Positions 1 to 45,938 of a stretch of 64,000 nt of DNA are shown piece by piece. Under the pieces are notes generated by a model that worked only from the letters and a program-made list of their open reading frames with translations, did not search any database and had not been told where the DNA came from. Numbering within the stretch: position 1 is the first letter of the stretch; each line of letters begins with the position of its first letter. This stretch comes from Candidatus Woesearchaeota archaeon (GTDB lineage Archaea; Nanobdellota; Nanobdellia; Woesearchaeales; GCA-023898365), in the NCBI GenBank assembly GCA_023898365.1, contig CP060219.1, forward strand, positions 334,688 through 398,687. Reading direction: 5' to 3'. The translations under genes and the position numbers were made by a program.

Positions 1-1356
1 AGATCTCTTTAAAACACCATGCTTAAAAAGATAAAAGCGATAAACAAAATCCTTAATATAATCTCTTGCCACATCAACAAATCTATCAGACTCGGAAAAA
101 GCAAGACCTTTCTGAGGAGTTATTCTCATTTCAAAGAGTGATGAAGTCTTCCAAAATTCTTGAAAAGCGCCGCCAGCATCAAAACCACCCGGATGAGAAC
201 GCATAGTCTCAACAAGACCTAACGCTTCACTTTCATCAACAAGAAAATGATTATTTCTGCGAGAAATACGATCTCTAAATTCTTGTTTGGAAAGAGGATC
301 CCCTCTAGTATACGTTGGTTCTGAAAGAACAACAAGAACATCATCTAACGATTTTTCATCAAAAGATAAATTTCGTTCAATAAACCATGCTTTTATCTCA
401 TCTTGCGTTATATGTAAACTACCTCGATCTCGAATAGATTTGATGAATTCGTACACGACAGTAAGAGTTGAACCCTGAGCAATAACATCTCCCGCTAACG
501 CACGTTTCAACAAACGATCATAATACTCCTGCAATAAATCATTTACCATCGGTTCTGATGTAAGAGGGGGAAAAGAAAGAATTTCTTCATCTATGCGCTG
601 GCCAGCTTGCAAAGCAAGATAATTGCCAAAAACCAAATCATACACCCAATCAGGACGCCTACTTGTTAGAAGCTCTCTGTTTTCAAGAAAATGAACTGTT
701 TGCAATCCTACTTCATCAAGAGTTCTTTGTTCGGAAGCGAGAGTTAAATGTGTTGCCCAGTCATAATAAAACAATTCTAAAGTTCGATTGATATGAGTAA
801 CATAATCAGAAGGAGAAACAGGAATCATTTTTGCTTGACCGACACGATCCTTAAGAACAGCAAGATGTTGGTCAAGAGGTTCTTTAAGTAAGTCTTCTAA
901 ACCTTGCGGTCGTCCAAACAAAAGGCCGATAGCTTCAGGAAGTATGCGAAATAGTGGGTGAGAAGATAAGTGATCTTGATCAAAAGGAGTTTTCAATTTA
1001 TCCAATGAAATTCCTTGAGCGTTCAAAGAAGATTCTGCTCCAGAATAATCACTCAATTCTAAGGCAAGATAAGCAACAATAAAACTCAATTTGTCCACCA
1101 CATGCAAATTACCAACAAACAACTGGTGATCTGCCAGGCGAGAAAAAGAAGTGTCAAGAAGAGGAACAAGAGAGTTGAAATATTCTTGAAGAGAACCCCT
1201 AAATGAAAGAGGAACTTGACCGATAATGTGGCGTCTCTGATCTTGATGTTTCAAGAAATTGCCAATTTTTTCCTCTAACAAATGAGAACGAAAACGATCT
1301 TTAGTCTTAGGAAACTCCGTCATTGATGAACTTAACACTTCTTGACTACTTTCCAT
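1..1356 (-). CDS. Partial CDS: N-terminal ~452 aa of a large hypothetical protein, with the ATG at 1356..1354 and the ORF continuing past the window start with no stop codon. It is the fourth gene of the tandem array of large proteins. It is absent from the supplied ORF track because its stop lies outside the window.
   Basis: Manual minus-strand translation from ATG 1356 gives MESSQEVLSSSMTEFPKTKDRF...RDYIKDFVYRFYLFKHGVLKRS with no stop down to nt 1. The frame was spot-checked at nt 1-60, 601-660 and 1261-1356. It lies 7 nt downstream of the stop of the 922-aa gene. Confidence 0.5.
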   Translation of the reverse strand, partial: MESSQEVLSSSMTEFPKTKDRFRSHLLEEKIGNFLKHQDQRRHIIGQVPLSFRGSLQEYFNSLVPLLDTSFSRLADHQLFVGNLHVVDKLSFIVAYLALELSDYSGAESSLNAQGISLDKLKTPFDQDHLSSHPLFRILPEAIGLLFGRPQGLEDLLKEPLDQHLAVLKDRVGQAKMIPVSPSDYVTHINRTLELFYYDWATHLTLASEQRTLDEVGLQTVHFLENRELLTSRRPDWVYDLVFGNYLALQAGQRIDEEILSFPPLTSEPMVNDLLQEYYDRLLKRALAGDVIAQGSTLTVVYEFIKSIRDRGSLHITQDEIKAWFIERNLSFDEKSLDDVLVVLSEPTYTRGDPLSKQEFRDRISRRNNHFLVDESEALGLVETMRSHPGGFDAGGAFQEFWKTSSLFEMRITPQKGLAFSESDRFVDVARDYIKDFVYRFYLFKHGVLKRS

Positions 1357-1362
1357 ATTCTT

Positions 1363-4131
1363 CTAAAACCCTTCTGGAGGAAAAACAATAAATCCCTCAC
1401 CTGATTGTGCTTGTGTAGGTAGCTTTTCATTGTGGATCATCGGTTTCTTTTTCTCCATCCCAAATCGCTCCATTTCTCTTTCCACATCTATTTCTATTGC
1501 TCTCAAATAACCTTCGCCCATATTCCAGTGCGGCATCGGATTACCAGGATTGCTATGCCGTTCCCACTCATAAAACGACGTTAAATATTCTTCACCACTG
1601 TACGGCAAAGTTTGCGGCAAACGCGAAGCAACAATATCACGCAAACGCCTCATAAACGGCGGCATGACTTCAGCTATGTCTACGACTGACCCATCGGGGC
1701 GCGTAATACCTTCGCGATCTTCCTCATAAAAATACGTCGGATCCTGAGCATTTTGTAACTTCGCAACCAAATCAGCAGGCAAAGGAGCCTTACGAACCTG
1801 ATGCGTATAAGCAAAACCATCAACTTCATGAGGTGTGCGAAGCAACACAAACTTTCTCACCCCATCCGCATCAACTTCTTTGAAAGTAAAATCAACTCCT
1901 TCATGCAAACGCGCTTGCGAAGCAACATAACGAACAAAATCCTGCGTGCTCTGCTGATCACGACTATGAGAGGCGTTCACTAACAGTCGGTTCACTCCCC
2001 GCCTATGTGCCAATTGAAGAAGGTTATGATAATTAAACTTATGCCATAGATAAGGTGTTCGATCACCTATAAAAGCCAAGGAGTGTGTTTGCAACGTAAT
2101 AAGTTCTGACTCGGGTCCACCAACAGTTCCATCAAGAACTAACACGCGCCCATGTCCTGCAGCGTAGCCTTCAAAGAGAATGTTCTTCACAGAAGAGCCA
2201 ACAAATTCATCTCCCTGATACAAATTAATATGAGGTAAATAAACACTAGGATCTAAACGAAAAACAAGTTGCGCAACACTTTCATCACAACCAGCACCTA
2301 AACAAGAAGCAGTCAAATCACAAACATCATCCAAAAAATCTTCATTTGTTTCAAAAACAATTCTATCAAATCTCTGTGAACCTTTCAATCGGTGTTTAAT
2401 TCTTGTTAAAAAATCAGCTGTGTGCGTTTCACCAAGTCTGTCTAACAAATTCGACTTGCCCCAACCTGCTTCCATTCGATAATATTTCGGAGGCGGAGGA
2501 TGTCGATAAGTTCTCACTCTGATTAATTCATCAATCGCAGAACACAATTCTTCATCAGATAATGATCTAACTGGATCAAGAGAACTCTCAACTTGCATTT
2601 GACGAAACAACGAACTCAGTACGGGGTTTGCAAATTCATCAAGTAAAGAAAATATTTTTGGTTTTGAAGTGATCAAGTAAGAACTCACCATGCTATCACC
2701 ATCTAACCAATCAGGTAACAACTCAGAGAAAATAACTCTTCCAAAGCGATCTTTATGCAACAAGTGACCTTTGGCAACGGCACGTTTCATATCTCTGTGT
2801 GCTAAACCACCATCATAAGCAGTTTTTTTTAATGGAAGAAGCATTTTTAACAAGAGTGCTTGCTGAGCAATAAATTGAATTGCAGTTTCACGAGCATCAA
2901 CAAGATCGGTTGCTATGCGACCAGCCAATGTTTCAGTAACCGAGCGAGCAAGGAGTTGCAGCTCTCTACTACCCCTTTCAGCATCACGATGTTTTGCAAC
3001 AACAGCGCCATAACCGCCCTCGGGAAGATCTTCTCGCAATAATTCAAATGCTCGTCGTTCATCAACAAGAGGATGACGTTGTAAGATTGGCGCAGTAAAG
3101 AGTTTCGTTAAATATTGTTGATGACGCAAAGCACGAACATCGCCAATCGTTGATCCTTCTGAAAATGCTTTCTTAACCAGCGATATATACAGTGAAGCTC
3201 TTTGATCATCAGAAAATGCTGGTAGAGCAAAATGAAACCAACGGTCTTGTTCTTCTTCACTTAACTCTTCAAATGACTTTCCTTTCAAAACACCAACTAA
3301 TTCGCCGAGAGCAATATAGATTTCGGGAATTTCCAGTAATCTTTCTCGTAAAAACAGCTTTGAAATAAGATTAGTAACTCGTTCACTCAGATCAGGTCTT
3401 GAAGCGGTTCTAGCATAGTTGTAAAAAAAGAAAAACAAAGGATGAGAACCATAATTTTCTTTAAGAAGCCGTAAACCCAATTGATAGGATAGGCGAGCAT
3501 CAGTTCTGTGTTTAGCACCAAAAAATTCTAAAGGTGCAAGCATCCCATAAGCACCAATGCCTTCTGGTCGCGAATTTTGAAAAATGAGTTTTTGATCAGC
3601 TTCTTGTTGTAAAACATCCCTTAGCGAACGATAGTATTCTGCATAAAGAAAATGATAAAACATTGATGTTGCTTCTGAAATAAATGAAGGTTTTTCATCT
3701 AAAATTGTTGCAATTGTTGAAAAATATCTGCCGGCAAGTCGCAAAACCTCGTGGTGATCATCCTCCATTGGGAGAAATCTTCCAAAAGAAAAAGGTTTAT
3801 TCTGATTCGTTGTGACAGCAACTAATGCAACATCTTCTTCGAAAGTTTTCATAACTTTCAAAAATTCAAGACCGAATGCCACATACTCTTGCAAACGAGA
3901 AGCACCTTTTAAAATTGCAAGTTCTTGATTGAAAAAAAAGAGTGTGCGTTCATTGTATTCATCAAATGAATCACCAATAATATCAATATCTCTAAAAGAA
4001 GGGTTTGCAAAGGATTCTATCTCAGCCAACGTTTGTTGCCAAAAATCCTCATCAGGATGCATTTTAGCAGTTCTTGCAAAGTTTGGCATTTCAAGCCGTT
4101 CAAAATCCGCAACGATTTGGTCAAGTGTCAT
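1363..4131 (-). CDS. Large hypothetical protein (922 aa), paralog P1 of the tandem array. It has a divergent helical N-terminal region and a conserved C-terminal domain with Cys and His motifs (approximately nt 1363-2390).
   Basis: Long ORF starting at ATG 4131 (MTLDQIVADFERL). The C-terminal ~340 aa share motifs with the next two genes: DDVCDLTASC, AQLVFRLDP, GSSVKNILFEG, LVLDGTVGG, NASHSRDQQSTQDFVRYVA, YLTSFYEWE and HWNMGEG. Confidence 0.85.
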   Translation of the reverse strand: MTLDQIVADFERLEMPNFARTAKMHPDEDFWQQTLAEIESFANPSFRDIDIIGDSFDEYNERTLFFFNQELAILKGASRLQEYVAFGLEFLKVMKTFEEDVALVAVTTNQNKPFSFGRFLPMEDDHHEVLRLAGRYFSTIATILDEKPSFISEATSMFYHFLYAEYYRSLRDVLQQEADQKLIFQNSRPEGIGAYGMLAPLEFFGAKHRTDARLSYQLGLRLLKENYGSHPLFFFFYNYARTASRPDLSERVTNLISKLFLRERLLEIPEIYIALGELVGVLKGKSFEELSEEEQDRWFHFALPAFSDDQRASLYISLVKKAFSEGSTIGDVRALRHQQYLTKLFTAPILQRHPLVDERRAFELLREDLPEGGYGAVVAKHRDAERGSRELQLLARSVTETLAGRIATDLVDARETAIQFIAQQALLLKMLLPLKKTAYDGGLAHRDMKRAVAKGHLLHKDRFGRVIFSELLPDWLDGDSMVSSYLITSKPKIFSLLDEFANPVLSSLFRQMQVESSLDPVRSLSDEELCSAIDELIRVRTYRHPPPPKYYRMEAGWGKSNLLDRLGETHTADFLTRIKHRLKGSQRFDRIVFETNEDFLDDVCDLTASCLGAGCDESVAQLVFRLDPSVYLPHINLYQGDEFVGSSVKNILFEGYAAGHGRVLVLDGTVGGPESELITLQTHSLAFIGDRTPYLWHKFNYHNLLQLAHRRGVNRLLVNASHSRDQQSTQDFVRYVASQARLHEGVDFTFKEVDADGVRKFVLLRTPHEVDGFAYTHQVRKAPLPADLVAKLQNAQDPTYFYEEDREGITRPDGSVVDIAEVMPPFMRRLRDIVASRLPQTLPYSGEEYLTSFYEWERHSNPGNPMPHWNMGEGYLRAIEIDVEREMERFGMEKKKPMIHNEKLPTQAQSGEGFIVFPPEGF

Positions 4132-4161
4132 GGTAATTTATTATTTTCAAAGCCAGCGTGA

Positions 4162-6285
4162 TTAGAATGGTAAGTCTTCACCATCATAATCACCTAATTC
4201 CGTTTTTAAACCCATTCTTCTCATTTCTTTCTGCACATCTATTTCAAGAGCGCAAATGGCCCCTCGTCCTTTTGTCCACTGGTGCTGACCGCCAATCACC
4301 TTCTCGTCTTGTTCACTTTCGTGTTGGAAAAAAGAGTCTAAATATAAAAGTCGATCAGAGTGTAGTTTTCCTTTCAGTTGAGGATACTTTTCTATCAAGT
4401 AAGATTTGTAGTCTTCAGGACCAATTACTTCAACATGGTGCGTATAGCGAGGCGCGTCTCCTGAAAAGCGCATACCTTGGACCAGTATTTGAGAGCCTTT
4501 TCTCTGAATTTTTAATTCTGTTGAACCATTTTCTAATTGTGAAGCAACATAACGAACAAATTCATGAGGGGAGTCTTGCCCTGGCGAATGATGTGTGTTT
4601 AGCAGGAGCGCGGAGTAACCTAAGCTGTGTGCTAATAATAGTAAGGCACGATAATTTTCCTTCATCCAAGTCTCTTTTGAAAACAACGTGTCTGCAGCTT
4701 TTCCTGCAATACAACCATCTAATAACAGTCCCTGTTTAACAGCAGATGCGTCATCTTCATCAAGTCGTCTGCTTGTTACTTCTGCAAGAATATTTTTAAC
4801 ACCTCCTCCAATTGAACCGCCAATAGTTATTAAATCAAGATGAAGTAAATGTGTGCGTGGATGTAAGAGATAGAGCAATTGTGCATGGGTATTTATACCA
4901 CCTTTGGAAAGACAAGAATCGGTCACATCACAAACACATCTAAGAGCATTAGTTTCAACTTTGAATTCTGTTTCCCTAACTCCTTGATAAGGCGTACCAT
5001 ACCTAGAAAAAGTTACTTGATGATAATAGTCTATTGTTCGTGAGAGCCAATCATCAATTGCTTCATAACCCCAAAAAGGACTCATATCTCTTTGTGAAGT
5101 TCTAAGTTGATCTTGGTGGTTTTTTCTTCTATTTGAAGGATTTTTTCGACGAACATCAAGCTCTCTTGCAACTGATCGCAATTGCGTAAAACGATCTTTT
5201 ACAAATATGTGAACATCTCGCATTACTCGAATTATTTTTGCTGGATGGGGTGCTGAGTCTTCCTGATTCGGCAATGAAGAAAAAATTTCAAGCTCGCCCT
5301 CCAAATCGCCCTCTTCATGAGTTTCAATGAATTTTTGTGGATCATCAAAAAATTGTTTCATTTCAGGGTGATCAGGTCTGTACAGCTGAGATAAAAAACC
5401 TAAAAGATTAGTTTCCTCGAGAAAATGTTGCAAAGAAGTCAAGTCTTTTCGTGAAAAAAGAAGCTGCACGTCATCAAGGTCTTCAGTTAAACAAGGTAGC
5501 ATAAATCTATGATGACCTCTGAGGAATGGCCAGAAACGATAAAGGTTTTCTTCAGAAAAAGAAAATTCTTTATCTAACAAACGTCTAGCATCGCGTGCAG
5601 TATCAAAGGGAACATCTTTAAAGTCATCCCAAGGCTCATCTAAAGAAGAAAAATGTTCCAACAACCCCTCTCTAAAAGGATTTCTTTCTCCAAGAAAAGC
5701 AAACTGTAAGCGTAAAGAATCATGATAATCACTGAGCATATCTGTTAGAAGTACAGGTAACTTCCGACCTGACTTCTTTTTAAGTGCCTTTCTTTGACGT
5801 TGCATGGAATAAATGTACAACAATTCACCTAAAAAAAACAAATAGTCGTTGAATATCTTTGCAGAATCATTCTCTGAAGTGGACAATTTTATCAGATGTT
5901 CTCTACCTGGTCGTAAGTTGATCCTTGGTGGAGGGCTTTCTTCATCAGAAAGATCATACGATCTATCCAAAAAAATTTCAAACAAAGCAGCTTCATCTAC
6001 AACATCATTTAATTGAGAGGGTGCTAGACGAGCACGAGGAGAAGAGGGATCTTGTGAGAGTAAAAGTATTCTGCTTAAATAGTTCTTTTGTTTTCCAAGA
6101 CGCTCGGCGTATAATTGTGAAGAACGAACACCATCGCTGTGCTGGTAAAGGTCTAACTTTTCAGGTTCACTAACTAATGATTCGAAGTGTGCAGTAGGAT
6201 TACTAGTGATCAGTCGGATTTCTTCTTCAATTTTCCTAATGGCGTCTTCGAGCTTCTCCCTTCGTTCGCGAATTTTTGAGGTCAT
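4162..6285 (-). CDS. Large hypothetical protein (~707 aa from ATG 6285; the track's 6297 start is a TTG), paralog P2. The conserved Cys/His domain lies at approximately nt 4162-4950.
   Basis: Motifs CDVTDSC, AQLLYLLHP, GGSIGGGVKNILAEV, LLLDGCIAG, NTHHSPGQDSPHEFVRYVASQ and a C-terminal ALEIDVQKEMRRMG shared with P1. The N-terminus MTSKIRERREKLE is identical to that of P3. Confidence 0.85.
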   Translation of the reverse strand: MTSKIRERREKLEDAIRKIEEEIRLITSNPTAHFESLVSEPEKLDLYQHSDGVRSSQLYAERLGKQKNYLSRILLLSQDPSSPRARLAPSQLNDVVDEAALFEIFLDRSYDLSDEESPPPRINLRPGREHLIKLSTSENDSAKIFNDYLFFLGELLYIYSMQRQRKALKKKSGRKLPVLLTDMLSDYHDSLRLQFAFLGERNPFREGLLEHFSSLDEPWDDFKDVPFDTARDARRLLDKEFSFSEENLYRFWPFLRGHHRFMLPCLTEDLDDVQLLFSRKDLTSLQHFLEETNLLGFLSQLYRPDHPEMKQFFDDPQKFIETHEEGDLEGELEIFSSLPNQEDSAPHPAKIIRVMRDVHIFVKDRFTQLRSVARELDVRRKNPSNRRKNHQDQLRTSQRDMSPFWGYEAIDDWLSRTIDYYHQVTFSRYGTPYQGVRETEFKVETNALRCVCDVTDSCLSKGGINTHAQLLYLLHPRTHLLHLDLITIGGSIGGGVKNILAEVTSRRLDEDDASAVKQGLLLDGCIAGKAADTLFSKETWMKENYRALLLLAHSLGYSALLLNTHHSPGQDSPHEFVRYVASQLENGSTELKIQRKGSQILVQGMRFSGDAPRYTHHVEVIGPEDYKSYLIEKYPQLKGKLHSDRLLYLDSFFQHESEQDEKVIGGQHQWTKGRGAICALEIDVQKEMRRMGLKTELGDYDGEDLPF

Positions 6286-6289
6286 TTCT

Positions 6290-8350
6290 TCAATCAATCA
6301 CCTCATCATTCGTTGCAGTTCCACCCCAATCAAGGTCTTTCAAAGACTCAGGGTCGGAATTCCAATTATCATAATAATTAGTTTCTTTTTGGGAAAGTTC
6401 AACAGGAGGACCTGGATCATCTTCTAAGTATTTAGAATACGTATCGCCCATTTCAAATCTACGTTTCGTTCTCTCAAATTTAATTCGTTTTTCTGTCAGA
6501 GAAGTAAAAACCATACCTGCAACAGTAACTTCCAACCCAGTCATTAAACCTTCGCCTTGATTCCAATGAGGCGTCGGATTTTTAGGATTGACGGTCTTTT
6601 CCCATTCATAAAAAGAGGTCAAGTATTGTCGCCCATCATATGGTGTTGCAGCATCACCAAACATTTTTTTGCTCTCGGCGTTAATCTGATCAATTACTTT
6701 AGTAAAATCTTGAGTGACTTTCTTTCTAACACGGTGTGTGTGAGTCAAACCTGTTGTTTCATCAGAATTTAAACCTCTAAACAATCTGAATTCTCGAACT
6801 CTTCCTTTTCGCTCAAAAGAATAATCCGATCCGTCTTGCAAACCAATCTGTTCAGCCACATAACGAACAAAATCATGTGTACTCTGCTGATCGCGACTAT
6901 GAGAGGTGTTAAATATAATTCTGGAGTAACCGTTTTTTTGCGCAAACAACACAAGCGATCTGAAATTAAGATCAAACCATTGTTCTCTAAATTCATTACC
7001 AGAATAATGAATCATGTCAGCTTCCAAACCTCCAACACAACCATCATGAACAAGAACTTTTCCAGAAGAATCTTCTCCTTCAAACACTATGTGCTTTAAA
7101 GAAGATCCTGCAAACAATCTATGATCAAAGAATGACTGGTGCAAGTATTGCCTTTCCATTTGATAGAGATTAACATGGAAAATATGTGTAGAAGGATCCA
7201 AACGATAGAGTAACTGGGCAACAGTTTCATTTCCCATACTTGAAAAACAAGAAGCGGTCAAATCACACACATCATCAAGAACATCAAGATTATGTTCAAA
7301 CCGCACTCCATTAAATTTTCTTGTAGCACCTAAAGATTTCTCCAATCTTAACAAATAATCATAAAAGACCACGACTTGATCATAGCGATCTTGAAATTGA
7401 GGATTCTGAGCATCATGCCGTTCTCCTTTTGAAGAAATACGACCTAATCTTTTTCCAACGTAAGCTCTTATGGTTTGAACAAGTTCTGCAACTTTTTTTG
7501 ATCGAAAATCATTAACATAATTTGTATGACCCACTTCCTTTACTGCTTTAACTAACTTAACTAGGGGCCACAGATATTGTTGTCGTGGCGAAAGAGGTTT
7601 AGCTGGCCAAGCATCTGCCAAAACCCTACAAGCATTCACTAAATCAACTAATTCTCTACCTGGAAAAGCAGGACTGGCAAACAAGTTAAAATCAGAATCG
7701 TCTTCTTTCAAATCATCTATAGAAAATACTTCTAATTGTCGAGGTTCCTCTGGATCCTCCTTGATAGGATCTTTAATGACAAACGACATGTTTACCTTAT
7801 CAAAAGATTTTTTTGCAAACACAACTTCAGCATAGTATTCAAATATCTTCTTCAATAACGTCCTACCTTGAAACAAGGGGCCAGATCTTGATTTCACAAG
7901 AGTGGCAAAAGGCCTCTCATCAATTTCCCCTACATCCTCAGAGAAAGCAATCTCTGCAGGAGTTCTAAAATTTACTAAATCTGCATCAGACCATTGAAAA
8001 ATTGGCAACAAAGGTTCATTCCAAAAATTTACCAATGGATACTTAAAAGAAGACTTGAACTCATGAAAAATCTTAGCAAGAGCTTGATAGTTTGGATCCT
8101 CACCAACCACACCAAATTGATCAGGTTTTGGTTCTTCAACATTCTCAAATTGATGAAGATTTTCTCTATCTAAAACTACTTCAAGCACAGGTTTCATATC
8201 AGCAACAGGATGTTCTCCAGGTTCTGCAGTTTCTGCTCGTTTTAAGAAAGCAATTTTCTCCCGTAAAAGAGAAGTATCGCGACCTTTAGCCCAATCACTA
8301 GCTAGAATCTCCTCAAGTTTCTCCCTTCGTTCGCGAATTTTTGAGGTCAT
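6290..8350 (-). CDS. Large hypothetical protein (686 aa), paralog P3. Its conserved Cys/His domain is internal (approximately nt 6520-7320) and is followed by an ~85-aa acidic tail.
   Basis: Motifs LDDVCDLTASC, AQLLYRLDP, GSSLKHIVFEG, LVHDGCVGG, NTSHSRDQQSTHDFVRYVAEQ, YLTSFYEWE and HWNQGEG. Its stop is 4 nt before the P2 ATG. Confidence 0.85.
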   Translation of the reverse strand: MTSKIRERREKLEEILASDWAKGRDTSLLREKIAFLKRAETAEPGEHPVADMKPVLEVVLDRENLHQFENVEEPKPDQFGVVGEDPNYQALAKIFHEFKSSFKYPLVNFWNEPLLPIFQWSDADLVNFRTPAEIAFSEDVGEIDERPFATLVKSRSGPLFQGRTLLKKIFEYYAEVVFAKKSFDKVNMSFVIKDPIKEDPEEPRQLEVFSIDDLKEDDSDFNLFASPAFPGRELVDLVNACRVLADAWPAKPLSPRQQYLWPLVKLVKAVKEVGHTNYVNDFRSKKVAELVQTIRAYVGKRLGRISSKGERHDAQNPQFQDRYDQVVVFYDYLLRLEKSLGATRKFNGVRFEHNLDVLDDVCDLTASCFSSMGNETVAQLLYRLDPSTHIFHVNLYQMERQYLHQSFFDHRLFAGSSLKHIVFEGEDSSGKVLVHDGCVGGLEADMIHYSGNEFREQWFDLNFRSLVLFAQKNGYSRIIFNTSHSRDQQSTHDFVRYVAEQIGLQDGSDYSFERKGRVREFRLFRGLNSDETTGLTHTHRVRKKVTQDFTKVIDQINAESKKMFGDAATPYDGRQYLTSFYEWEKTVNPKNPTPHWNQGEGLMTGLEVTVAGMVFTSLTEKRIKFERTKRRFEMGDTYSKYLEDDPGPPVELSQKETNYYDNWNSDPESLKDLDWGGTATNDEVID

Positions 8351-8526
8351 AGTCTTACAGCTAGGAATTCGAGCCTTTTGGACTATACATAAAGGGTTTC
8401 ACACTTATAAATCTTACTATTTTTACCTCTATATAGTGGTATCAAATGAGAAAAACACTAAATATTTCCTTTCAACACAACAAACTTAATTAATTTCCAT
8501 ATAGAAAATAATTAAAACAAAAAAAA

Positions 8527-8994
8527 TTAGCCTTGGAGCTCAAGTAACTTTTTCTTAACCAAAGCAGCATGGCCTTTTGCTTTGACTGCCTTCCACCAGT
8601 GCACAACCTTGCCAGAAGGGTCAATAATCACAGTCGAACGTTTAACGCCGTTAAACATCCGTCCGTACAACATTTTCTTTCCCCAAGCACCATAGTTTTC
8701 CATCATGTGCGCATCGGGATCGGATAATAATCGCACTTTCAAATTATACTTTTCACGAAATTTTTGGTGCGATGCTGAGGAATCTTTGCTGACACCAAGA
8801 ACAGTAGCACCTATTTTCTCAAAACCTGCAAACTCATCAGTAAATTCGCACGCCTCTACTGTGCACCCGGGCGTATTGTCCTTTGGATAGAAATAAATCA
8901 CCACCCATTTGCCTAGATAATCCTTCAAGGACACGTTTTTCTCATCCGTATCGCGTAATGTAAAGGCAGGAGCCTTTTTTCCAACCAATTCCAT
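8527..8994 (-). CDS. bcp: Peroxiredoxin of the Bcp type (thiol peroxidase, AhpC/TSA family)
   Basis: 155 aa with KAPAFTL, the peroxidatic cysteine motif YFYPKDNTPGCT and the resolving-Cys region CEF. The length is typical for Bcp. Confidence 0.85.
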   Translation of the reverse strand: MELVGKKAPAFTLRDTDEKNVSLKDYLGKWVVIYFYPKDNTPGCTVEACEFTDEFAGFEKIGATVLGVSKDSSASHQKFREKYNLKVRLLSDPDAHMMENYGAWGKKMLYGRMFNGVKRSTVIIDPSGKVVHWWKAVKAKGHAALVKKKLLELQG

Positions 8995-9025
8995 AATTCA
9001 CCTCAAAAAATAATAAAAAAATAAA

Positions 9026-9421
9026 TTACTTCTTATTTACCCACAGTCCGTGTAAATTACAGTAGGCACGCACTTTGACATCGCTTGCATCTAAAACAAG
9101 AAACTCAGCTTTAGGCGCATCGCCTGGCGTTAACTTCTGCGTTAAGACTTGAGAACCTGCTAAGACCTGAATAAAGCCAATGTAATGATCTTCATCCATG
9201 GGATGAGGAATAGAGCCAACATTAACAATGACTTTGTTTCCTTCAATTTCCACAATGGGCACGTGCTTTTCTTTACCTTCATCTTTTAAGAAGATTTCAG
9301 GCAAATTTCTCCAGGATGCATCTGCAAGAGTTTCTCCATCAAATAATTCTACAACAACTTTACTTTCTTTATGTTGATATATGTCCATTGTTATTACCTC
9401 AAATTTTTCCAACCAAGTCAA
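9026..9421 (-). CDS. sor: Superoxide reductase (1Fe-SOR / neelaredoxin class, desulfoferrodoxin family)
   Basis: EKHVPIVEI, GSIPHPMDEDHYI and CNLHGLW motifs. The longest ORF overlaps ahpC by 23 nt; an alternative start MDIYQ at nt 9388 would give ~120 aa. Confidence 0.8.
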   Translation of the reverse strand: MTWLEKFEVITMDIYQHKESKVVVELFDGETLADASWRNLPEIFLKDEGKEKHVPIVEIEGNKVIVNVGSIPHPMDEDHYIGFIQVLAGSQVLTQKLTPGDAPKAEFLVLDASDVKVRAYCNLHGLWVNKK

Positions 9422-9959
9422 GTCCTGGTTTTAATGTCTTACCACCTGGCGTCCAGCTTGCAGGACAGACTTCGCCGCCATGAGCTGCAACGTATTGTGC
9501 TGCTTGCAATTTACGAACAAGTTCAGCTGCGCTTCGACCGATAGAATTATCATGTAGTTCGTAGGCCTTTAGTATGCCGTCAGGATCAATAATGAATGTT
9601 CCGCGAAGGCTCAAACCTTCTTCTTCAATCATCGTGCCATACGCTCTGCAAATCTTTCCTGTTGGGTCTGCAACCATGGGAAAGGTTATTTTCTTAATCG
9701 TGTCCGATTCATCATGCCATGCTTTGTGAACAAAGGCAGTGTCTGTTGAGACGCTTAGAACTTCAACATTCATTTTCTTAAGCGCTTCATAATGATCGGC
9801 CATTTCGCCAAGTTCCGTTGGACAGACAAAGGTGAAATCAGCAGGGTAGAAGAACAACACCGTCCACTTCCCAGCGTAATCTTTCAGATTGACTTTCTTT
9901 ATCTCGCCACCAACAAATGCGTCAGCAGAGAACTCTGGTGCTTTTTCATTTATTTTCAT
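9399..9959 (-). CDS. ahpC: Typical 2-Cys peroxiredoxin (AhpC/Tsa family)
   Basis: 186 aa with FFYPADFTFVCPTEL (peroxidatic Cys) and C-terminal GEVCPASW (resolving Cys). Confidence 0.9.
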   Translation of the reverse strand: MKINEKAPEFSADAFVGGEIKKVNLKDYAGKWTVLFFYPADFTFVCPTELGEMADHYEALKKMNVEVLSVSTDTAFVHKAWHDESDTIKKITFPMVADPTGKICRAYGTMIEEEGLSLRGTFIIDPDGILKAYELHDNSIGRSAAELVRKLQAAQYVAAHGGEVCPASWTPGGKTLKPGLDLVGKI

Positions 9960-10330
9960 TTTTTCATACCTCCTTTGGCGCCAACACGACAGATAATGTC
10001 GACATGTGTTGGCTCAATTCCTTTTTGTTTCAACGAGTCAAATAGGGTGCGCATGAGCGCGGAATCAAGTTCGTCAACAATAACGCCCTGCTCATCGATA
10101 ATATGAATGTGCGGCTCTACAATCGCATCAAAATGTAATTGATCATGAAGGGAAAACTGTGATAATTCGCCTTGCGCAACAAGCTTATGCAAATTGCGAT
10201 AGACGGTGGCGCGGGTAATCGTTGGGACTTCTTTGACAACTGCGAGAAACACTTCTTCTGCTGTTGGGTGCGAGGTAACAGACGCCACATAGGACAAGAT
10301 TTTTTGGTTTTGAATTGTTTGTCGTTCCAT
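9956..10330 (-). CDS. Fur-family metal/peroxide-responsive transcriptional regulator (PerR-like), the first gene of the oxidative-stress operon
   Basis: 124 aa with HPTAEEV, ITRATVYRNLHKL and the HxH site PHIHIIDEQG. It overlaps the ahpC start by 4 nt. Confidence 0.75.
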   Translation of the reverse strand: MERQTIQNQKILSYVASVTSHPTAEEVFLAVVKEVPTITRATVYRNLHKLVAQGELSQFSLHDQLHFDAIVEPHIHIIDEQGVIVDELDSALMRTLFDSLKQKGIEPTHVDIICRVGAKGGMKK

Positions 10331-10450: not shown

Positions 10451-11623
10451 GTGTTACCATCGATAAGTATGTTACAACTGTTCAAGCCATTGGGAAAGAT
10501 GAATAAAGGCCATTTGCGGCTCATTGCAGAATATCTGCCACGAGAAGATGTGCAAGCAATCACCACACTTCTGAAAAAAAACCTGATTACAGTCACGTAC
10601 GAACAACTCAGAACAACAATCGTACGACCAAAAACCTATCCACAACTCCAAGCAAAACAATCAGACGGCAAACTTGAAAATAAACTTCGAAGCTACAACA
10701 CCTTCATAGAAGAGCGGTTCTATCAAAAAGTATTCAGAGAATTCTCAAGTGTCGCGTTTGAAAAAATAAATTACTTCTTCGAACGAACCGGATTTAAGAA
10801 AAAAGAAATAACAAACGCACTCATCCTGAGCTTGTTTGCGAAAAACCCAACGCACCTACTCCTTCTTGGCGATCCCGAACAAGGACAAAACGAACTACTC
10901 TCTTCAGTAAGCACCCTTTCACCAATTGGCGTAATTGCAGATCTTAAAGAAATTCCTGAATCGCACCTCTATATGAAAACGATCAACAAAAAACGAGAAC
11001 CTGGCTGCATTGCAGAAGCGCACGACGGCATTCTCATCCTCAAACATCTCCAATTCAAAAGCGATGCAGCAACTCACACGTTTGCAAAAGCATTAGATAC
11101 AGGAAAAACAACCTTCAAACGAGGTAAAGCAGAAGTGCACGTAACAAGCAATTTTTCGTGCATAGCCACCTCGTATCCAGATAGTTTTCATTTTGTTGGT
11201 AAACGCATCTCTTTCTTACATGGACAACTCATGTTCCCCCAAACCTTACTTCAAGACTTCTCACTTGTCTTCTTACTGCGAAGAAGTCCGCAACAAGAAT
11301 TCTTCAGAGAAAAAAATTTCTATTCCCTTAACATGCACACGCAAGACATTAATGATCCGGATATTGAATTTGTCAGAAAATACATTGAGTATGCACGAGA
11401 GCACACCATCGACTTTGCCCAGCTCTTAAAAGCAGAAGTAGCAGACTTTGTTGAAAGTCTTATGGGCAAAAAAGAATACTTTATAGAACCAAACAAAAAC
11501 ACTATCAAAGGCATCATTAACTTAGCAAAGGCACGAGCAGCACTTCATTTGCGCAAAGACGTCACCACAGACGATCTCGAATTTGTCTTCTCTATCGTTA
11601 AAGAAAGCGCGATTTCATTCTAA
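10451..11623 (+). CDS. Inactivated MCM-like AAA+ protein (MCM homolog with degenerate Walker A/B motifs and no canonical N-terminal domain)
   Basis: Positional equivalents of MCM motifs: HLLLLGDPEQGQNELL (Walker A lacking GK[ST]), AHDGILILKHLQF (Walker B lacking the DE), SCIATSYP (cf. AAANP), LQDFSLVFLL (cf. SRFDL arginine-finger region) and FVRKYIEYAREH (cf. the MCM LRKYIAYAR motif). Confidence 0.5.
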   Translation: MLPSISMLQLFKPLGKMNKGHLRLIAEYLPREDVQAITTLLKKNLITVTYEQLRTTIVRPKTYPQLQAKQSDGKLENKLRSYNTFIEERFYQKVFREFSSVAFEKINYFFERTGFKKKEITNALILSLFAKNPTHLLLLGDPEQGQNELLSSVSTLSPIGVIADLKEIPESHLYMKTINKKREPGCIAEAHDGILILKHLQFKSDAATHTFAKALDTGKTTFKRGKAEVHVTSNFSCIATSYPDSFHFVGKRISFLHGQLMFPQTLLQDFSLVFLLRRSPQQEFFREKNFYSLNMHTQDINDPDIEFVRKYIEYAREHTIDFAQLLKAEVADFVESLMGKKEYFIEPNKNTIKGIINLAKARAALHLRKDVTTDDLEFVFSIVKESAISF

Positions 11624-19304: not shown

Positions 19305-19641
19305 GTAAGTAAGCGCCAGAGCTAGCTTCGGATCATTCGTGATCTGCGGAAAGTCCACCCACTCATTACCGACCGCTTGTCGCAAGGCAAGAAGGGGAGA
19401 CTCTTGGCAACACAGACAAGAGAAAAAACCACCTGTTTTTTGGGATGATACGCAAAAGAACCGCCTTGGTAACAGACGGGAGTTAACTCGTTGACGACAA
19501 AACAGGAAAGGATGAGAACTGTGCCCTGGTTGAGTGCAAGTCTTTTTGACGCTTAGTCTACTGCTAGCAAGGTCATCGCAAAGAAAAGTACTTCTTTGTT
19601 TGGGCCAATAACAGAAGGTGGCTTATCTGGCGCATACTTAC
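19305..19641 (+). ncRNA. rnpB: RNase P RNA (rnpB), ~337 nt
   Basis: CR-I-like GGAAAGUCCACC at ~19341-19352 and CR-V-like ACAGAAGGUGGCUUAUC at 19611-19627. The P4 strands CCACC/GGUGG are complementary and covary relative to the CCGGG/CCCGG consensus. A 16-bp P1/P2 terminal pairing links 5' GUAAGUAAGCGCCAGA (19305-19320) with 3' UCUGGCGCAUACUUAC (19626-19641). The locus is GC-rich relative to its surroundings and has no ORF. Confidence 0.65.
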
Positions 19642-35948: not shown

Positions 35949-36093
35949 GCAGACAACAGAAAACAGAAAAAAAAAACATGAGCCCGGGGGGATATAGGAA
36001 CGCCAACAACAATTTGGCGTTTGTGAGCCTGCATACGCTAACACGTAGCAGACAACAGAAAACAGAAAAAAAAAAACATGAGCCCGGGGGGAT
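35949..36093. repeat. Two direct copies (35949-35993 and 36048-36093, 45 and 46 nt) of the tRNA-Ile 3'-terminal 15 nt plus its 30-nt poly-T trailer, separated by 54 nt. This is an att-like tandem duplication of a tRNA 3' end.
   Basis: The string gcagacaacagaaaacagaaaaaaaaa(a)catgagcccggggggat occurs twice. The second copy is continuous with the intact tRNA-Ile. Confidence 0.8.
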
Positions 36094-36152
36094 TTGAACC
36101 CCCGACCACACGATTATCAGTCGTGCACTCCACCAGACTAAGCTACGGGCTC
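36079..36152 (-). tRNA. tRNA-Ile (anticodon GAT)
   Basis: Folded manually. Acceptor GAGCCCG/CGGGCUC, anticodon stem CACGA/UCGUG with loop CUGAUAA, T-arm GGGGG-UUCAAAU-CCCCC and discriminator A. CCA is not encoded. Confidence 0.85.
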
Positions 36153-36162
36153 GAATAAAAAA

Positions 36163-36237
36163 TGGCGCCTCCGACCAGGATCGAACTGGTGACCTTGCGG
36201 TTAACAGCCGCACGCTCCACCGCTAAGCTACGGAGGC
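36163..36237 (-). tRNA. tRNA-Asn (anticodon GTT), with 3' CCA encoded
   Basis: Acceptor GCCUCCG/CGGAGGC, anticodon stem UGCGG/CCGCA with loop CUGUUAA, T-arm ACCAG-UUCGAUC-CUGGU, discriminator G then CCA. It lies 10 nt upstream of tRNA-Ile. Confidence 0.85.
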
Positions 36238-37226: not shown

Positions 37227-37306
37227 TTTGAGAGCGAAAGTGAGCAAACCACGGAAAAGTACGGAAGGGCTTTGACAGTGTCACGAAGGGAGTTCAAGAA
37301 ATTAAG

Positions 37307-37378
37307 AGCCTCCGGTGAGATTTGAACTCACGACCGCCTGATTACAAGTCAGGCGCACTACCACTATGCTACGGAGGC
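37307..37378 (-). tRNA. tRNA-Thr (anticodon TGT)
   Basis: Acceptor GCCUCCG/CGGAGGC, anticodon stem CCUGA/UCAGG with loop CUUGUAA, T-arm GUGAG-UUCAAAU-CUCAC and discriminator U. Confidence 0.85.
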
Positions 37379-42136: not shown

Positions 42137-45100
42137 CTAATTATATTTTCTGTTTCTCCAGCGATCACGCACGTAGCTGACAATCATCATAAGGATCGTT
42201 ATTGCAATAACCCCTCCTACTGCAAGAACAACCCGTTCAGAAAGTAAATCGGTGAGGGTCACCATACTAAAAAGACCTCTTGGAGAATCAAGATTTATTT
42301 CATTCTTCTCATTATCAATTAGATACTTACATCCATTTATGATGTTATCAAGCTCGGTTAATGCTTGAGAGATAGGAATACTTGATGCTCTTCGTTCAAG
42401 CTCGGTAAGCAGTTCGTTCATTTCAGCACAGGCAGGGTTTGAAGCGAGAAGGTCTCGAGCAAACGTAACTTTTACTTTGTATGCTTCTTCATCGTCAGTT
42501 GATTTCTCAAGAGAGTTGATATGAATTGTTGCGGAGTCGCTTGCAACGGGATCGTCTGTTGTGACATTCACGACGATTTCATACGTGCCACTCGTGCGAT
42601 AATTGCCAAGAGTAAGTAACGTAGATGCGTTCTGCCCAATACCAAGTGAAGCAACGTAATCCTCACTGAATGTTACCGTAACATTTTCAGAGCCGGCAAT
42701 TGCGTTAAAATTAATTCCGTAGAGCGAATCATCCCAGGTGTTCACAACAGTGATGGGAACCGTGACCGTATCATTTTCATAAACGGCAACTACATCGCTA
42801 ACCACTATTGAGAACGGTTCAGGAGAATCAACTTCTTCCTGGAAAGGCACAGTAACTGTTGTGGTTACTGTTCTTGTTCCGCCAGGATTGTTTGATGTTT
42901 GCACATCAATTACAGGATCGGGAACATTAGTAATGACAATGCGAACCGTATTCGAAGAAACATATGCTCCTGCGTCATCAGTTGCGTTGAAGACCACATC
43001 ACAGTACCCTAATGATGTTGGAGTAATGGTTAAAGACGTATCTGTTATGCTCAGTGTTGCAACAGAGCAAGATTCGCCGTAGGCTAAAGAGAAGTTTAAG
43101 GTTGACGATTCCGCACCATCAAGCAAACCATTTGCGCTGGTATCATCATCTGCATCGTAAAAACGCTGAACGCTGTTACGATATATAAAATAATTTGCAA
43201 GTGCAGTTGTTTGTGAAACAGAGAAGTTATCAAGAGGACCATAAAATACAGGAGGACGATTAAGATTGGCAATAGTAATATTCCAACTAAAGTTTGCCGT
43301 GCTATAATACGCATCAGTTGCACTTACGACAATATCATGTGTTCCCGCGGTTGAAAAGTTAAATGATCTGGTGTAATTTGAATTGACCCCCGGGTCGACA
43401 CCAGGCAAATTAAGTTTCTGCACACCATCAACATACCATCTGTAAGAAATATTATTATTTATCTGGGTCGTGTCGTTTGTCGCGAGCGCATCAAACGTAA
43501 CAGTTGCGTTTTCTGAAAAATTGATGGTGATGTTTGTCAAACCACCAACGACAAACCATGAAGTGTTTAGTGAGGTATTTGACATGAAAGGAGTCACTTG
43601 GGTAAATTGAGGGGGAACAGATTCGTTGTAAATGGTGATGTTAACAAGCTGCCAATCGACCAACCCACCCGCATCAGTAACTGAAGCGTTTGCTTCGTAC
43701 ACCCCATACTCTCCTGATTGAGGAACAAAAGAAACAGTCACTTCATTGACATCCGTTTTTGAGTAAGCAAAGCCCGTTGGTGATGCCCCTGTAAAAGCAA
43801 AGTTAAAGGTCAGATTATCATCAAGAACAAAAAAATCAATATCAGTTGCGTAAAAAACATTTTCATAGAGAACATCTTCAACAAGAATGCCAAAATTGAT
43901 GGCATCAGACACATTGTCTTGATTATTGTCCCATATTGGCGCATCGTTTGCATTGCCTATTTCAAAGGAAAGAACTTCATAATCGCACACATTTGCAAGA
44001 TCACAGACCGAAACATTCAATGTTTTATTTCCAACTTGCGCATTTGTTGGTGTAAAATTCATCCAATAAAGCGTCATGTTACCTTGCACCAGACCAAGGT
44101 TTGACGCGTTAAATCCTGCTTCGTATGCAAACGACCAAGTAAGGTTGTCTCCGTCGCGATCAATTGCGGTAAAGTATGATGAACCAAGAATGCCTTGCGT
44201 ATAATTAACAAGAGAAACAGTCATTACAGGCACCGAATTGTTACGAATAGTGATGTTTGCAATAGCAGTTGTTATAGCCTCACCATCATCAACATACACT
44301 TCGAAGAGGTAATTTCCAATTAGACCTGGACCGACTGTAAAATTAAATTCTCCCGATGTGCTATTAATAGTGAAATTAGAATGGTTTGTTGAAAACGTTA
44401 AGGTATCGCCTGCATATGTTAGTTGGTCAACATCAGAATAATTAAGTGGTGAGGAAAACGTTGCATTCACATACCACGTAAAATTTGAAAGATTGTATAT
44501 GCCGTCGGTTAGTTCGTAAATTACCGGAGCATCATTTAGGTTTAAAATGTTAAACGTGACATTATTCTCCGTATAGCCTCCATGATCATCAGTTACTCGA
44601 ATGCGGACGTTTCGGCAGGCGACGTGGTCATTTGTCATAATTTGGTTGATCACGATAGAAGCGTTCGAACCGTTCACTAAGGTGGTGAATGACCAAGGAT
44701 TTGAAAGGGAGCACGTGCGGGGCGTGATAGTGAACGTGATATTGTCTGCAACATCTGCATCGGAAGCGTTGATATAAAACGTGAAGAGATCTGACTGATT
44801 AGTATCAGGAGTGACTAGGTTCGATGTGATCTGCGGCAATTGATTAACAGCTGAAACGTTAATGGTAAAAGAGGTTTCAACTGGCGGCAATAAACTTGCA
44901 TTGTCGCTAATGTTCATATACACCGTCCACAATCCTCTGTCAGCAAATTGAGGCGCGTTGCTTGGACGGTTAAAGGTAACATACCCTTCCGTGTTTGATG
45001 ACTGAACAAAAATAATTGAAGCAAGATCAGTGCTCATGTTAAAGGTGAACGGTTCGTCTCCTTCCTCATCAAACCCAGAAATTGAATAATTAAACGTGAT

Positions 45101-45775
45101 GTCTTCTGTCGCCTGTTGATTCGTTAAATTTGGTAAAAAATATGCTTGATCATTTACTTCTGCAACTGTGTAGGTTACGGTAATTCCTAAGAGCGAGGGA
45201 GTGTCATCTTTTACATAAAAAGTAAAATTGGTGTCACCAATATGTGCTGCTAAAGGTATGCACGTGACTAATCCCGCCCCAGAAATATCGCAGTAGTTTG
45301 TTCCGTCCGTTTCTAAAAAGGTCAGCGCATCACCATCGGGATCAAAAGCTGAAAGCTGTGTTTGGAAAACGACATCTTCTGTTAAGAGCTCATCAGTTGC
45401 ATTTGGAAGGTTAGGAAGGGAATTATTAATGGTGAACAATTTTCCTGCGGTGGCGCTTGTCGAACCATTCCACAACGTCACATTACAACTCCATCGTTCA
45501 CCACGCTGCGCAATATAGGAAAGTAACGTCGTGCGATTGTCAGTGAACGGAATGTTTGCAACTGTCGTGTAAGGAGAACTGCCATTATACCAAGTCACGT
45601 TTTGTTGTACGGTGTCAATTGAGGGTTTCCAAGAACAGATAATGTTGTCTCTTGTTGTAGGAGTTGACGGCGAAATGCTCGGCAGCGTAGAAAAATTTAC
45701 TGCAAGCGCAAATGCTATGATGAAGAGGGCAAGCGAAGTCACAACAAGTGTTTGGAAGAGGTCAACTCGTTTCAT
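42137..45775 (-). CDS. Giant cell-surface glycoprotein-like protein (~1213 aa from MKRVD) with a signal peptide, a sequon-rich beta-rich ectodomain and a C-terminal TM anchor
   Basis: Signal peptide MKRVDLFQTLVVTSLALFIIAFALAVNF, dozens of NxS/T sequons and the C-terminal TM helix VVLAVGGVIAITILMMIVSYV followed by a basic tail. The track ORF starts further upstream at 45841 and overlaps the RHH gene. Confidence 0.7.
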   Translation of the reverse strand: MKRVDLFQTLVVTSLALFIIAFALAVNFSTLPSISPSTPTTRDNIICSWKPSIDTVQQNVTWYNGSSPYTTVANIPFTDNRTTLLSYIAQRGERWSCNVTLWNGSTSATAGKLFTINNSLPNLPNATDELLTEDVVFQTQLSAFDPDGDALTFLETDGTNYCDISGAGLVTCIPLAAHIGDTNFTFYVKDDTPSLLGITVTYTVAEVNDQAYFLPNLTNQQATEDITFNYSISGFDEEGDEPFTFNMSTDLASIIFVQSSNTEGYVTFNRPSNAPQFADRGLWTVYMNISDNASLLPPVETSFTINVSAVNQLPQITSNLVTPDTNQSDLFTFYINASDADVADNITFTITPRTCSLSNPWSFTTLVNGSNASIVINQIMTNDHVACRNVRIRVTDDHGGYTENNVTFNILNLNDAPVIYELTDGIYNLSNFTWYVNATFSSPLNYSDVDQLTYAGDTLTFSTNHSNFTINSTSGEFNFTVGPGLIGNYLFEVYVDDGEAITTAIANITIRNNSVPVMTVSLVNYTQGILGSSYFTAIDRDGDNLTWSFAYEAGFNASNLGLVQGNMTLYWMNFTPTNAQVGNKTLNVSVCDLANVCDYEVLSFEIGNANDAPIWDNNQDNVSDAINFGILVEDVLYENVFYATDIDFFVLDDNLTFNFAFTGASPTGFAYSKTDVNEVTVSFVPQSGEYGVYEANASVTDAGGLVDWQLVNITIYNESVPPQFTQVTPFMSNTSLNTSWFVVGGLTNITINFSENATVTFDALATNDTTQINNNISYRWYVDGVQKLNLPGVDPGVNSNYTRSFNFSTAGTHDIVVSATDAYYSTANFSWNITIANLNRPPVFYGPLDNFSVSQTTALANYFIYRNSVQRFYDADDDTSANGLLDGAESSTLNFSLAYGESCSVATLSITDTSLTITPTSLGYCDVVFNATDDAGAYVSSNTVRIVITNVPDPVIDVQTSNNPGGTRTVTTTVTVPFQEEVDSPEPFSIVVSDVVAVYENDTVTVPITVVNTWDDSLYGINFNAIAGSENVTVTFSEDYVASLGIGQNASTLLTLGNYRTSGTYEIVVNVTTDDPVASDSATIHINSLEKSTDDEEAYKVKVTFARDLLASNPACAEMNELLTELERRASSIPISQALTELDNIINGCKYLIDNEKNEINLDSPRGLFSMVTLTDLLSERVVLAVGGVIAITILMMIVSYVRDRWRNRKYN

Positions 45776-45938
45776 GTGAAAGTAACCGCTTAATTGTTTT
45801 ATTTTTCTGAACATAGGTCTTTGTCTTTGCTGCGAGCTCATCTAAGACCAGTTCTTTAATCGTTTGCTGAGAAATAACTGATGCTAAACGCAAGCGTTGA
45901 TGCAAGTCGTCAGGTAAAGCAATATTCAGTCGTCCCAT
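45762..45938 (-). CDS. Small ribbon-helix-helix (CopG/Arc/MetJ-like) protein, 58 aa. Unannotated in the ORF track.
   Basis: Manual translation: MGRLNIALPDDLHQRLRLASVISQQTIKELVLDELAAKTKTYVQKNKTIKRLLSHETS. The N-terminal beta-strand plus helix (RLNIALPDDLHQRL) is the classic RHH signature. Its stop overlaps the surface-protein ATG. Confidence 0.55.
   Translation of the reverse strand: MGRLNIALPDDLHQRLRLASVISQQTIKELVLDELAAKTKTYVQKNKTIKRLLSHETS

Follow-up and report, generated by a model that had tools for sequence, protein, structure and literature searches.

A tandem array of paralogous genes in a Woesearchaeota genome encodes an orphan C-terminal domain with a predicted GNAT fold

This study concerns a stretch of 64,000 nucleotides from the genome of a Candidatus Woesearchaeota archaeon (contig CP060219.1, positions 334,688 to 398,687; hereafter the window) and, within it, an array of four large genes, P1 to P4. 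An earlier note, made from the sequence alone, had described them as a compact co-oriented array, and indeed the open reading frames (ORFs) begin and end exactly as described, all on the minus strand, with intergenic gaps of 4 nt (P3-P2), 30 nt (P2-P1) and 6 nt (P1-P4). An archaeal RNase P RNA (113.5 bits) identifies the window as archaeal, and together with the tRNA genes it confirms that this is chromosomal archaeal DNA. In good agreement with a source among the DPANN archaea (Woesearchaeota), P1 is identical to a protein encoded on a 1.13-Mb contig of a Woesearchaeota metagenome-assembled genome (MAG). DPANN archaea are generally regarded as host-associated. The features of the array are as follows:

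8384..8411, minus strand: two TATA-like boxes (TTTATAAG, TTTATGTATA), 35 to 60 nt upstream of the P3 start
6290..8350, minus strand: P3, 686 aa; N-terminal helical hairpin, orphan region 53-283 and C-terminal domain of predicted GNAT fold
8310..8350, minus strand: 5' coding end of P3, 41 nt, the partner copy of 6245-6285
6298..6304, minus strand: GAGGTGA, resembling a Shine-Dalgarno site, 12 nt before the ATG of P2 and within the end of P3
4162..6285, minus strand: P2, 707 aa from the ATG (711 aa if the possible TTG start at 6297 is used); of the four paralogs, the one that has diverged most
6245..6285, minus strand: 5' coding end of P2, 41 nt (peptide MTSKIRERREKLE), matching the start of the P3 coding sequence at 93% identity
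1363..4131, minus strand: P1, 922 aa, identical to the NCBI entry [quoted passage not shown]
1..1356, minus strand: first 452 codons of P4, whose ORF begins at 1356 and continues beyond the edge of the window

The complete P4 was recovered from the database as P0004, a protein of 1152 aa starting with MESSQEVLSS. It carries the domain shared by the other three proteins at residues 845-1152, outside the window, and all four genes are thus paralogs. Because P2 is preceded by a Shine-Dalgarno-like site, which is consistent with polycistronic translation, and because TATA-like boxes were found in the array only upstream of P3, where they represent a candidate promoter, the array fits an operon whose genes would be co-transcribed. 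The 41-nt similarity between P2 and P3 begins exactly at the ATG, while the remainder of their N-terminal halves is unrelated. Gene conversion limited to this segment may be the cause, or the segment may be a conserved element of the N terminus or of the translation start.

A shared C-terminal domain and its relatives

The three complete proteins had been proposed to combine a common C-terminal domain with unrelated N-terminal regions, and pairwise BLASTP comparisons bear this out. P1 and P3 match with an E-value of 4e-63 (38% identity over 325 aa), P2 and P3 with 1e-28 and P1 and P2 with 7e-22. All matches are confined to the C-terminal 260 to 325 residues, and the N-terminal halves have no mutual similarity. 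Chance is far from explaining matches of this strength, and the observation is genuine. The shared domain measures 260 to 310 aa and lies at the following positions:

6431..7318, minus strand: conserved domain of P3, residues 345-640, predicted GNAT fold
4189..4974, minus strand: conserved domain of P2, residues 438-699
1438..2373, minus strand: conserved domain of P1, residues 587-898, predicted GNAT fold with a helical insert and a C-terminal beta-hairpin

The motifs by which the domain had been defined are present, with a few deviations: P2 reads GGGVKNIL instead of G-[SG]-S and NTHHS instead of N-x-S-H-S, and P3 reads HTHRV instead of YTHxV.

The domain had also been suspected to fall outside catalogued families, and this assessment held in every search. 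Pfam, NCBIfam and PADLOC returned nothing meaningful for P1 to P4. Pfam gave no match in 70 full-length family members (E≤0.01) or in 27 domains (E≤10), and PHROGs gave none with the same 27 domains. A sequence search of the PDB with a three-sequence profile was empty, a word-index search for homologs recovered P1 itself only, and we found no account of the domain family in the literature. Relatives were detected by an exhaustive hidden Markov model (HMM) search, in which a profile of the three paralogous domains was run against 1.84 billion cluster representatives (E≤1e-3). This yielded 83 proteins, of which one (P0072) was a spurious repeat protein; the other 82, which are representatives at 50% identity, contain the whole domain, nearly always at the C terminus. 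For the six members that are named, the sources are MAGs of Woesearchaeota, Nanoarchaeota and Aenigmarchaeota, all of them DPANN archaea; the others are unnamed metagenome proteins. The best matches of P1 to P4 are one another.

The N-terminal regions of the family fall into several unrelated BLAST groups and 27 singletons of very different lengths, and those of P1 to P4 match none of them. In a model of full-length P3, region 53-283 had a predicted local distance difference test score (pLDDT) below 50. A crude hydropathy scan of P1 to P4 revealed hydrophilic N termini and neither a signal peptide nor a membrane-like segment, which speaks against the secretion that had been considered for these proteins.

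Recombination among the paralogs, proposed earlier from a mosaic distribution of motifs, also found no support. When a five-sequence alignment is divided into 60-column segments, P1 and P3 form the closest pair in five of the six informative ones, and over most of the domain P2 has diverged furthest. Both motifs in question, Y-x-D-x-W-Y-x-W-N ... W-N-x-G-x-G and E-I-D-V-x-x-E-x-x-R-L-G, also rendered as Y-L-[TD]-S-[FL]-Y...W-N-x-G-x-G and E-I-D-V-x-x-E-x-x-R-x-G, are found family-wide; the first has diverged in P2 and the second is split by a 15-aa insertion in P3. Judged from the alignment, the motifs are ancestral and have diverged differentially, and since this explains the pattern, recombination is not needed. 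The 41-nt 5' end shared by P2 and P3 is a local exception to this picture.

Loci were also scanned with a distant subfamily (A6) of the family, and the ORFs of the nine archaeal loci obtained were then searched with the HMM:

L001, MAG labelled Methanosarcinales: five paralogs
L002, metagenome sample Ga0247727: five paralogs
L003, metagenome sample Ga0247727: at least three paralogs
L004, metagenome sample Ga0247727: four paralogs
L005, metagenome sample Ga0247727: three paralogs
L006, metagenome sample Ga0247727: two paralogs
L007, metagenome sample Ga0247727: one paralog
L008, metagenome sample Ga0334722: one paralog
L009, metagenome sample Ga0247727: no paralog scored

The same family thus occurs as co-oriented tandem paralogs, two to five each, at six of these nine loci, and multiplication in tandem is, on this sequence evidence, characteristic of the family in two archaeal groups or more. 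Scans of genome, metagenome and viral contigs with the subfamily of the window found no relatives, and no relatives of the distant subfamily were found on viral contigs. Paralogs within an array are 35 to 50% identical, and their best matches are mixed, some within the genome and others between genomes. The arrays are therefore old, and their turnover continues.

In the distant subfamily, a near-identical element resembling a TFB recognition element (BRE) and TATA box (TTWTATATTCTRNAGTATATA; GAAAAGGTTTATATATTCTGGAGTATATA) precedes the start of each unit, ATG GGG TTG GA, by about 7 to 14 nt. We counted 16 copies in seven loci, always on the gene strand (for example at 4082-4102, 5806-5826 and 7504-7524 in L001, and at 5411-5431, 8624-8644 and 10478-10498 in L002); the element is absent from the window. 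Small ORFs of about 170 to 180 aa in the same arrays carry it as well. Such arrays resemble a series of cassettes, each with its own promoter. Their neighbors are housekeeping genes, namely, FtsZ, PGK and ABCE1.

In three loci, the last paralog is directly followed by a convergent gene for a double winged-helix regulator of the Lrp/AsnC type (L001, 9720-10766, minus strand; L002, 12353-13399, minus strand; L008, 10977-11873, minus strand). These regulators are 65 to 92% identical between loci, one of which has a very different GC content (0.56 versus 0.43). The protein could be a regulator of the array, or its position could merely reflect conserved synteny; in the genome studied here, the equivalent position falls beyond the window.

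Predicted fold and conserved residues

Residues 579-906 of P1 were modeled with AlphaFold2 from a 27-sequence family alignment. The model is confident (mean pLDDT, 82.9; predicted template modeling score, 0.81) and consists of elements in the order beta-alpha-alpha-beta-beta-beta-alpha-beta-alpha-beta, the three consecutive strands being long, followed by further strands, a helical insert and a final beta-hairpin. This is the order characteristic of GNAT (Gcn5-related acyl-CoA N-acyltransferase; Pfam clan CL0257) enzymes, beta1-alpha1-alpha2-beta2-beta3-beta4-alpha3-beta5-alpha4-beta6(-beta7). A Foldseek search of the PDB with the model listed GNAT-fold structures only, albeit with weak E-values (at least 6e-3). 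The best structural matches were Naa80 (5wje/6nas), the polyamine acetyltransferase DpA (8a9n) and RimI-type enzymes (7n1l/9mto), and the toxins TacT, AtaT and KacT, together with another GNAT toxin, were also among the best. When the 27-sequence profile was compared with the PDB, the sole match, a borderline one, was again a GNAT-fold enzyme, the synthase domain of MprF (4v36_A; E = 0.024), aligned over the predicted alpha3-beta5-alpha4-beta6 region. PDB matches of a profile built from 70 full-length proteins were coiled-coil and designed-helix noise arising from the N termini and were discarded.

We next determined residue conservation over 106 aligned domains, i.e., the 82 representatives plus paralogs from the fetched loci. 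In P1 numbering, the most strongly conserved positions are Cys610, the second cysteine of CDLTASC (101/103), position 667, which is Asp or Glu in all 105 domains aligned there, Gly668 (100/106), Asn719 (105/106) and Gly874 (102/102). Asp627 (94/106), His722 (92/106), Gln726 (88/106), Thr776 (87/106), His777 (85/106) and Glu880 (87/106) follow, as do Trp869 (77/106) and Asn870 (82/106). An invariant cysteine and invariant histidines had been postulated for the domain. Cys610 is near-invariant, and His722 and His777 are often retained, but the first cysteine of CDLTASC (Ala in P4, and mostly Val, Phe, Ile, Asp or Leu elsewhere), His634 of HINL and His868 of HWN are not conserved across the family. 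The main positions are encoded in P1 as follows:

2302..2304, minus strand: codon of Cys610, predicted alpha1-alpha2 loop
2128..2133, minus strand: codons of Asp667-Gly668, predicted strand beta4, with 667 as candidate general base
1954..1977, minus strand: Asn719...His722...Gln726 (N-x-x-H-S-x-x-Q), predicted end of beta5 and enlarged beta5-alpha4 loop
1801..1806, minus strand: codons of Thr776-His777 (YTH motif), predicted strand after alpha4
1492..1527, minus strand: W869-N870-x-G-x-G874 ... E880, predicted C-terminal beta-hairpin motif

The model would place Asp627 just before beta2, L-x-V-[DE]667-G668-V in beta4, Ala708 in alpha3, Asn719 at the end of beta5 and F-V-R-Y-V-A in alpha4, with His722, Ser723, Gln726 and Ser728 in the enlarged beta5-alpha4 loop. 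The loops alpha1-alpha2 and beta6-beta7 form the acceptor site of GNATs. The donor of these enzymes is bound between beta4 and beta5, and a Glu or Asp as general base together with a Tyr or Cys as general acid is usual (PMC8072286). The invariant carboxylate in predicted strand beta4 and the Asn that closes predicted strand beta5 would agree with catalysis of the ordinary GNAT type.

In other respects the family differs from GNAT N-acetyltransferases such as Naa80, DpA and the RimI-type enzymes, to which it has no detectable sequence similarity. The acetyl-CoA (acetyl-coenzyme A) loop Q/R-x-x-G-x-G/A is missing, and the predicted beta5-alpha4 loop is enlarged and carries H-S-x-x-Q-x-S. Furthermore, a near-invariant Cys is present in the predicted alpha1-alpha2 loop, a helical insert of about 80 to 100 aa lies between the strands, after which the conserved W-N-x-G-x-G hairpin follows, and the domain is fused behind orphan N-terminal regions of 340 to 840 aa and encoded in tandem arrays. 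Because the canonical loop is missing and no GNAT profile matched, we file the domain as a new, sequence-orphan family that has a predicted GNAT fold and belongs to no named GNAT family.

Possible function of the array proteins

We propose that the domain of P1 to P4 is a divergent GNAT-fold acyltransferase and that the N-terminal parts direct each paralog to its own target or partner, a reading to which we assign a probability of about 0.55. Each protein would be cytoplasmic and built of two parts, namely, a variable, mostly helical N-terminal part of 340 to 840 aa and a catalytic C-terminal domain of about 300 aa. The acyl donor, most probably an acyl-CoA, would be bound in the cleft between beta4 and beta5, where Asp/Glu667 on beta4, next to Gly668, would act as the general base. 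Asn719 and the enlarged beta5-alpha4 loop with His722, Ser723, Gln726 and Ser728 would take the place of the canonical donor-binding motifs. The acceptor side would be lined by Cys610 in the alpha1-alpha2 loop, by Thr776-His777 and by the W-N-x-G-x-G hairpin, with Cys610 possibly serving as a general acid or as the site of a transient acyl intermediate. The array would then represent a set of acyltransferases with one chemistry and, through their unrelated N-terminal parts, several specificities. The analysis itself establishes the paralogy, the family with its conserved residues, the prediction of a GNAT fold and the repeated occurrence of tandem arrays in other archaea, whereas the identity of the donor, the roles of the single residues, the targeting role of the N-terminal parts and co-transcription are what we infer.

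Several observations weigh against this proposal. No link to any GNAT family was detected at the sequence level, with Pfam, and thus profiles such as Acetyltransf_1, _7 and _10 and FR47, searched to E = 10, and an hhalign comparison of the family with a hand-entered sequence of Escherichia coli RimI gave a probability of 0.1%. The acetyl-CoA loop that follows beta4 in GNATs is not conserved: the segment after L-x-V-[DE]-G-V varies in length and composition, and P1 to P4 have VGGPES, IAGKAA, VGGLEA and LGGPEA, respectively. The evidence for the fold comes from predicted structures, and the match is one at the level of the fold. About 100 residues, comprising the helical insert and the hairpin, have no GNAT counterpart that could be assessed. 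Where Cys610, His722 and His777 would lie with respect to the cleft was deduced from the predicted topology only, and the active-site Cys of characterized GNATs has so far been non-catalytic (PMC8072286).

The last point deserves closer comparison. The active-site pair of Esa1, a member of the MYST group, is Cys304-Glu338. In analogy to our family, MYST/Esa1 and RimL-like GNATs combine a conserved Cys with an invariant carboxylate, and they pose the same question of a ping-pong mechanism versus direct transfer; the active-site Cys of Esa1 and that of RimL proved dispensable (PMC8072286). In our family, Cys610 is retained in 101 of 103 domains, which argues for a real role of this residue.

A first alternative, which overlaps our proposal and which we consider unlikely as an explanation of its own, keeps the GNAT chemistry and sees in the proteins a conflict system, that is, toxin-like or defense/effector acyltransferases comparable to the tRNA-acetylating toxins TacT and AtaT, with an arms race against hosts or viruses driving the diversity of the paralogs. 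The presence of TacT, AtaT, KacT and a further GNAT toxin among the best fold matches would agree with this. So would the strong expansion and divergence of the paralogs, of which an array has two to five and a single metagenome sample at least 20, and the cassette-like units with a near-identical promoter-like element in one subfamily. However, there was no PADLOC or PHROGs match, viral contigs held no relatives, and the neighbors are housekeeping genes (FtsZ, PGK, Lrp and peroxiredoxins). Moreover, TacT, AtaT and KacT are single-domain proteins of about 160 to 180 aa encoded with a small antitoxin gene, whereas the window proteins have 686 to 1152 aa, 4 to 7 times the size of GNAT toxins, and the window holds no small antitoxin-like partner gene. 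A toxin-antitoxin module was considered for the window and rejected because no partner gene lies between or beside the ORFs of the array.

The GNAT fold could also be a scaffold for something other than acyl transfer, such as a thiol hydrolase or thioesterase, a zinc site or a non-catalytic ligand sensor, and to this we likewise give a low probability. Cys610, Asp627, His722, His777 and Glu880 are residues typical of thiol-histidine sites or of zinc ligands, the canonical donor motifs of GNATs are missing, and GNATs that carry out decarboxylation or condensation are known (PMC8072286). On the other hand, the acidic residue of predicted strand beta4 and the Asn closing predicted strand beta5 would suit ordinary GNAT catalysis, and His722 and His777 are replaced in 13 to 20% of the members while Cys610 is kept.

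About equally doubtful is a more far-reaching version of our proposal. It holds that this is an archaea-specific GNAT-fold family which has put its own Cys, Asp/Glu, Asn-His-Gln and Thr-His constellation in place of the acetyl-CoA motifs. Its chemistry would be one so far undescribed for GNATs, for example ping-pong acylation through the Cys or the use of a non-CoA donor, and in its arrays of cassette-like paralogs, N-terminal modules that are swapped or evolve rapidly would retarget the one catalytic domain to many substrates, possibly in conflicts between symbiont and host or between virus and host.

Quite unlikely, in our view, is a GNAT-fold transferase that takes its donor from an aminoacyl-tRNA or an acyl-carrier protein, as do FemX, MprF, L/F-transferase and the acyl-homoserine lactone (AHL)/N-acyl-amino-acid synthases. 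It is true that the sole profile match in the PDB is the aminoacyl-tRNA-dependent MprF domain and that the family lacks the CoA pyrophosphate loop motif. Indeed, the canonical CoA loop is likewise missing from the lysyl-phosphatidylglycerol synthase domain of MprF (DUF2156, 4v36) and from Fem-type transferases. But the MprF match, with its E-value of 0.024, is borderline and covers the alpha3-beta5-alpha4 core, which is generic to GNATs. FemX, MprF/DUF2156 and L/F-transferase have two tandem GNAT lobes, whereas the model of our family has a single GNAT core with a helical insert and a hairpin.

The idea put forward in the earlier note, that of papain-like or transglutaminase-like thiol enzymes that are secreted or effector-like and diversify by recombination among paralogs, agrees with the near-invariant Cys, with two often-conserved His residues and with an expansion in tandem arrays in a DPANN organism, but it is highly improbable and, as regards the fold, largely refuted, since the domain model does not have the papain-type alpha+beta fold of clan CA, its structure-match lists contain no papain-like or transglutaminase-like structures, P1 to P4 have no signal peptide or membrane segment in the hydropathy scan, and the supposedly mosaic motifs are ancestral, with P1 and P3 closest in most segments. 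What was found instead is essentially a structural match, at the fold level and with predicted structures, to a known family with another catalytic apparatus.

Small genomes with many proteins of unknown function are typical of DPANN archaea, and the more than 10 kb devoted here to four large paralogs is therefore notable. These orphan proteins now have a predicted fold and candidate active-site residues, and their family is defined (82 representatives and 106 domains, none of them in Pfam), and the family is new within one of the largest and best-known enzyme superfamilies. If its members are acyltransferases with N-terminal targeting modules, archaea could have an unrecognized layer at which proteins or metabolites are acylated. 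If Cys610 is catalytic, the family would be a rare case of a Cys-dependent GNAT.

Other features of the window

Directly upstream of the array lies an oxidative-stress cluster on the minus strand (8527-10330); the AT-rich spacer between it and P3 is 176 nt long and contains the TATA-like boxes. This cluster and the RNA genes of the window are as follows:

8527-8994, minus strand: AhpC/TSA-family (Bcp-like) peroxiredoxin
9026-9421, minus strand: desulfoferrodoxin-type superoxide reductase
9399-9959, minus strand: peroxiredoxin with a 1-Cys C-terminal domain
9956-10330, minus strand: Fur-family regulator
19309-19637, plus strand: archaeal RNase P RNA
36079-36237 and 37306-37378, minus strand: tRNA-Ile(GAT), tRNA-Asn(GTT) and tRNA-Thr(TGT)

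A 390-aa ORF on the plus strand (10451-11623) matches the P-loop and lid domains of MCM only (E = 1.9e-8 and 3.7e-5) and is, judging by these domains, an MCM-like AAA+ protein that is truncated and lacks the OB/zinc domain at its N terminus. Two further large ORFs, both on the minus strand, are orphans: one of 1234 aa (42137-45841) has only a weak match to the Ig-like domain Big_9, and one of 687 aa (46211-48274) has no Pfam match. Finally, a giant ORF of 3812 aa (52549-63987, minus strand) contains beta-helix/NosD, LVIVD and Laminin_G_3 (concanavalin-like) domains and probably encodes a huge surface or adhesion protein of a kind common in DPANN genomes.

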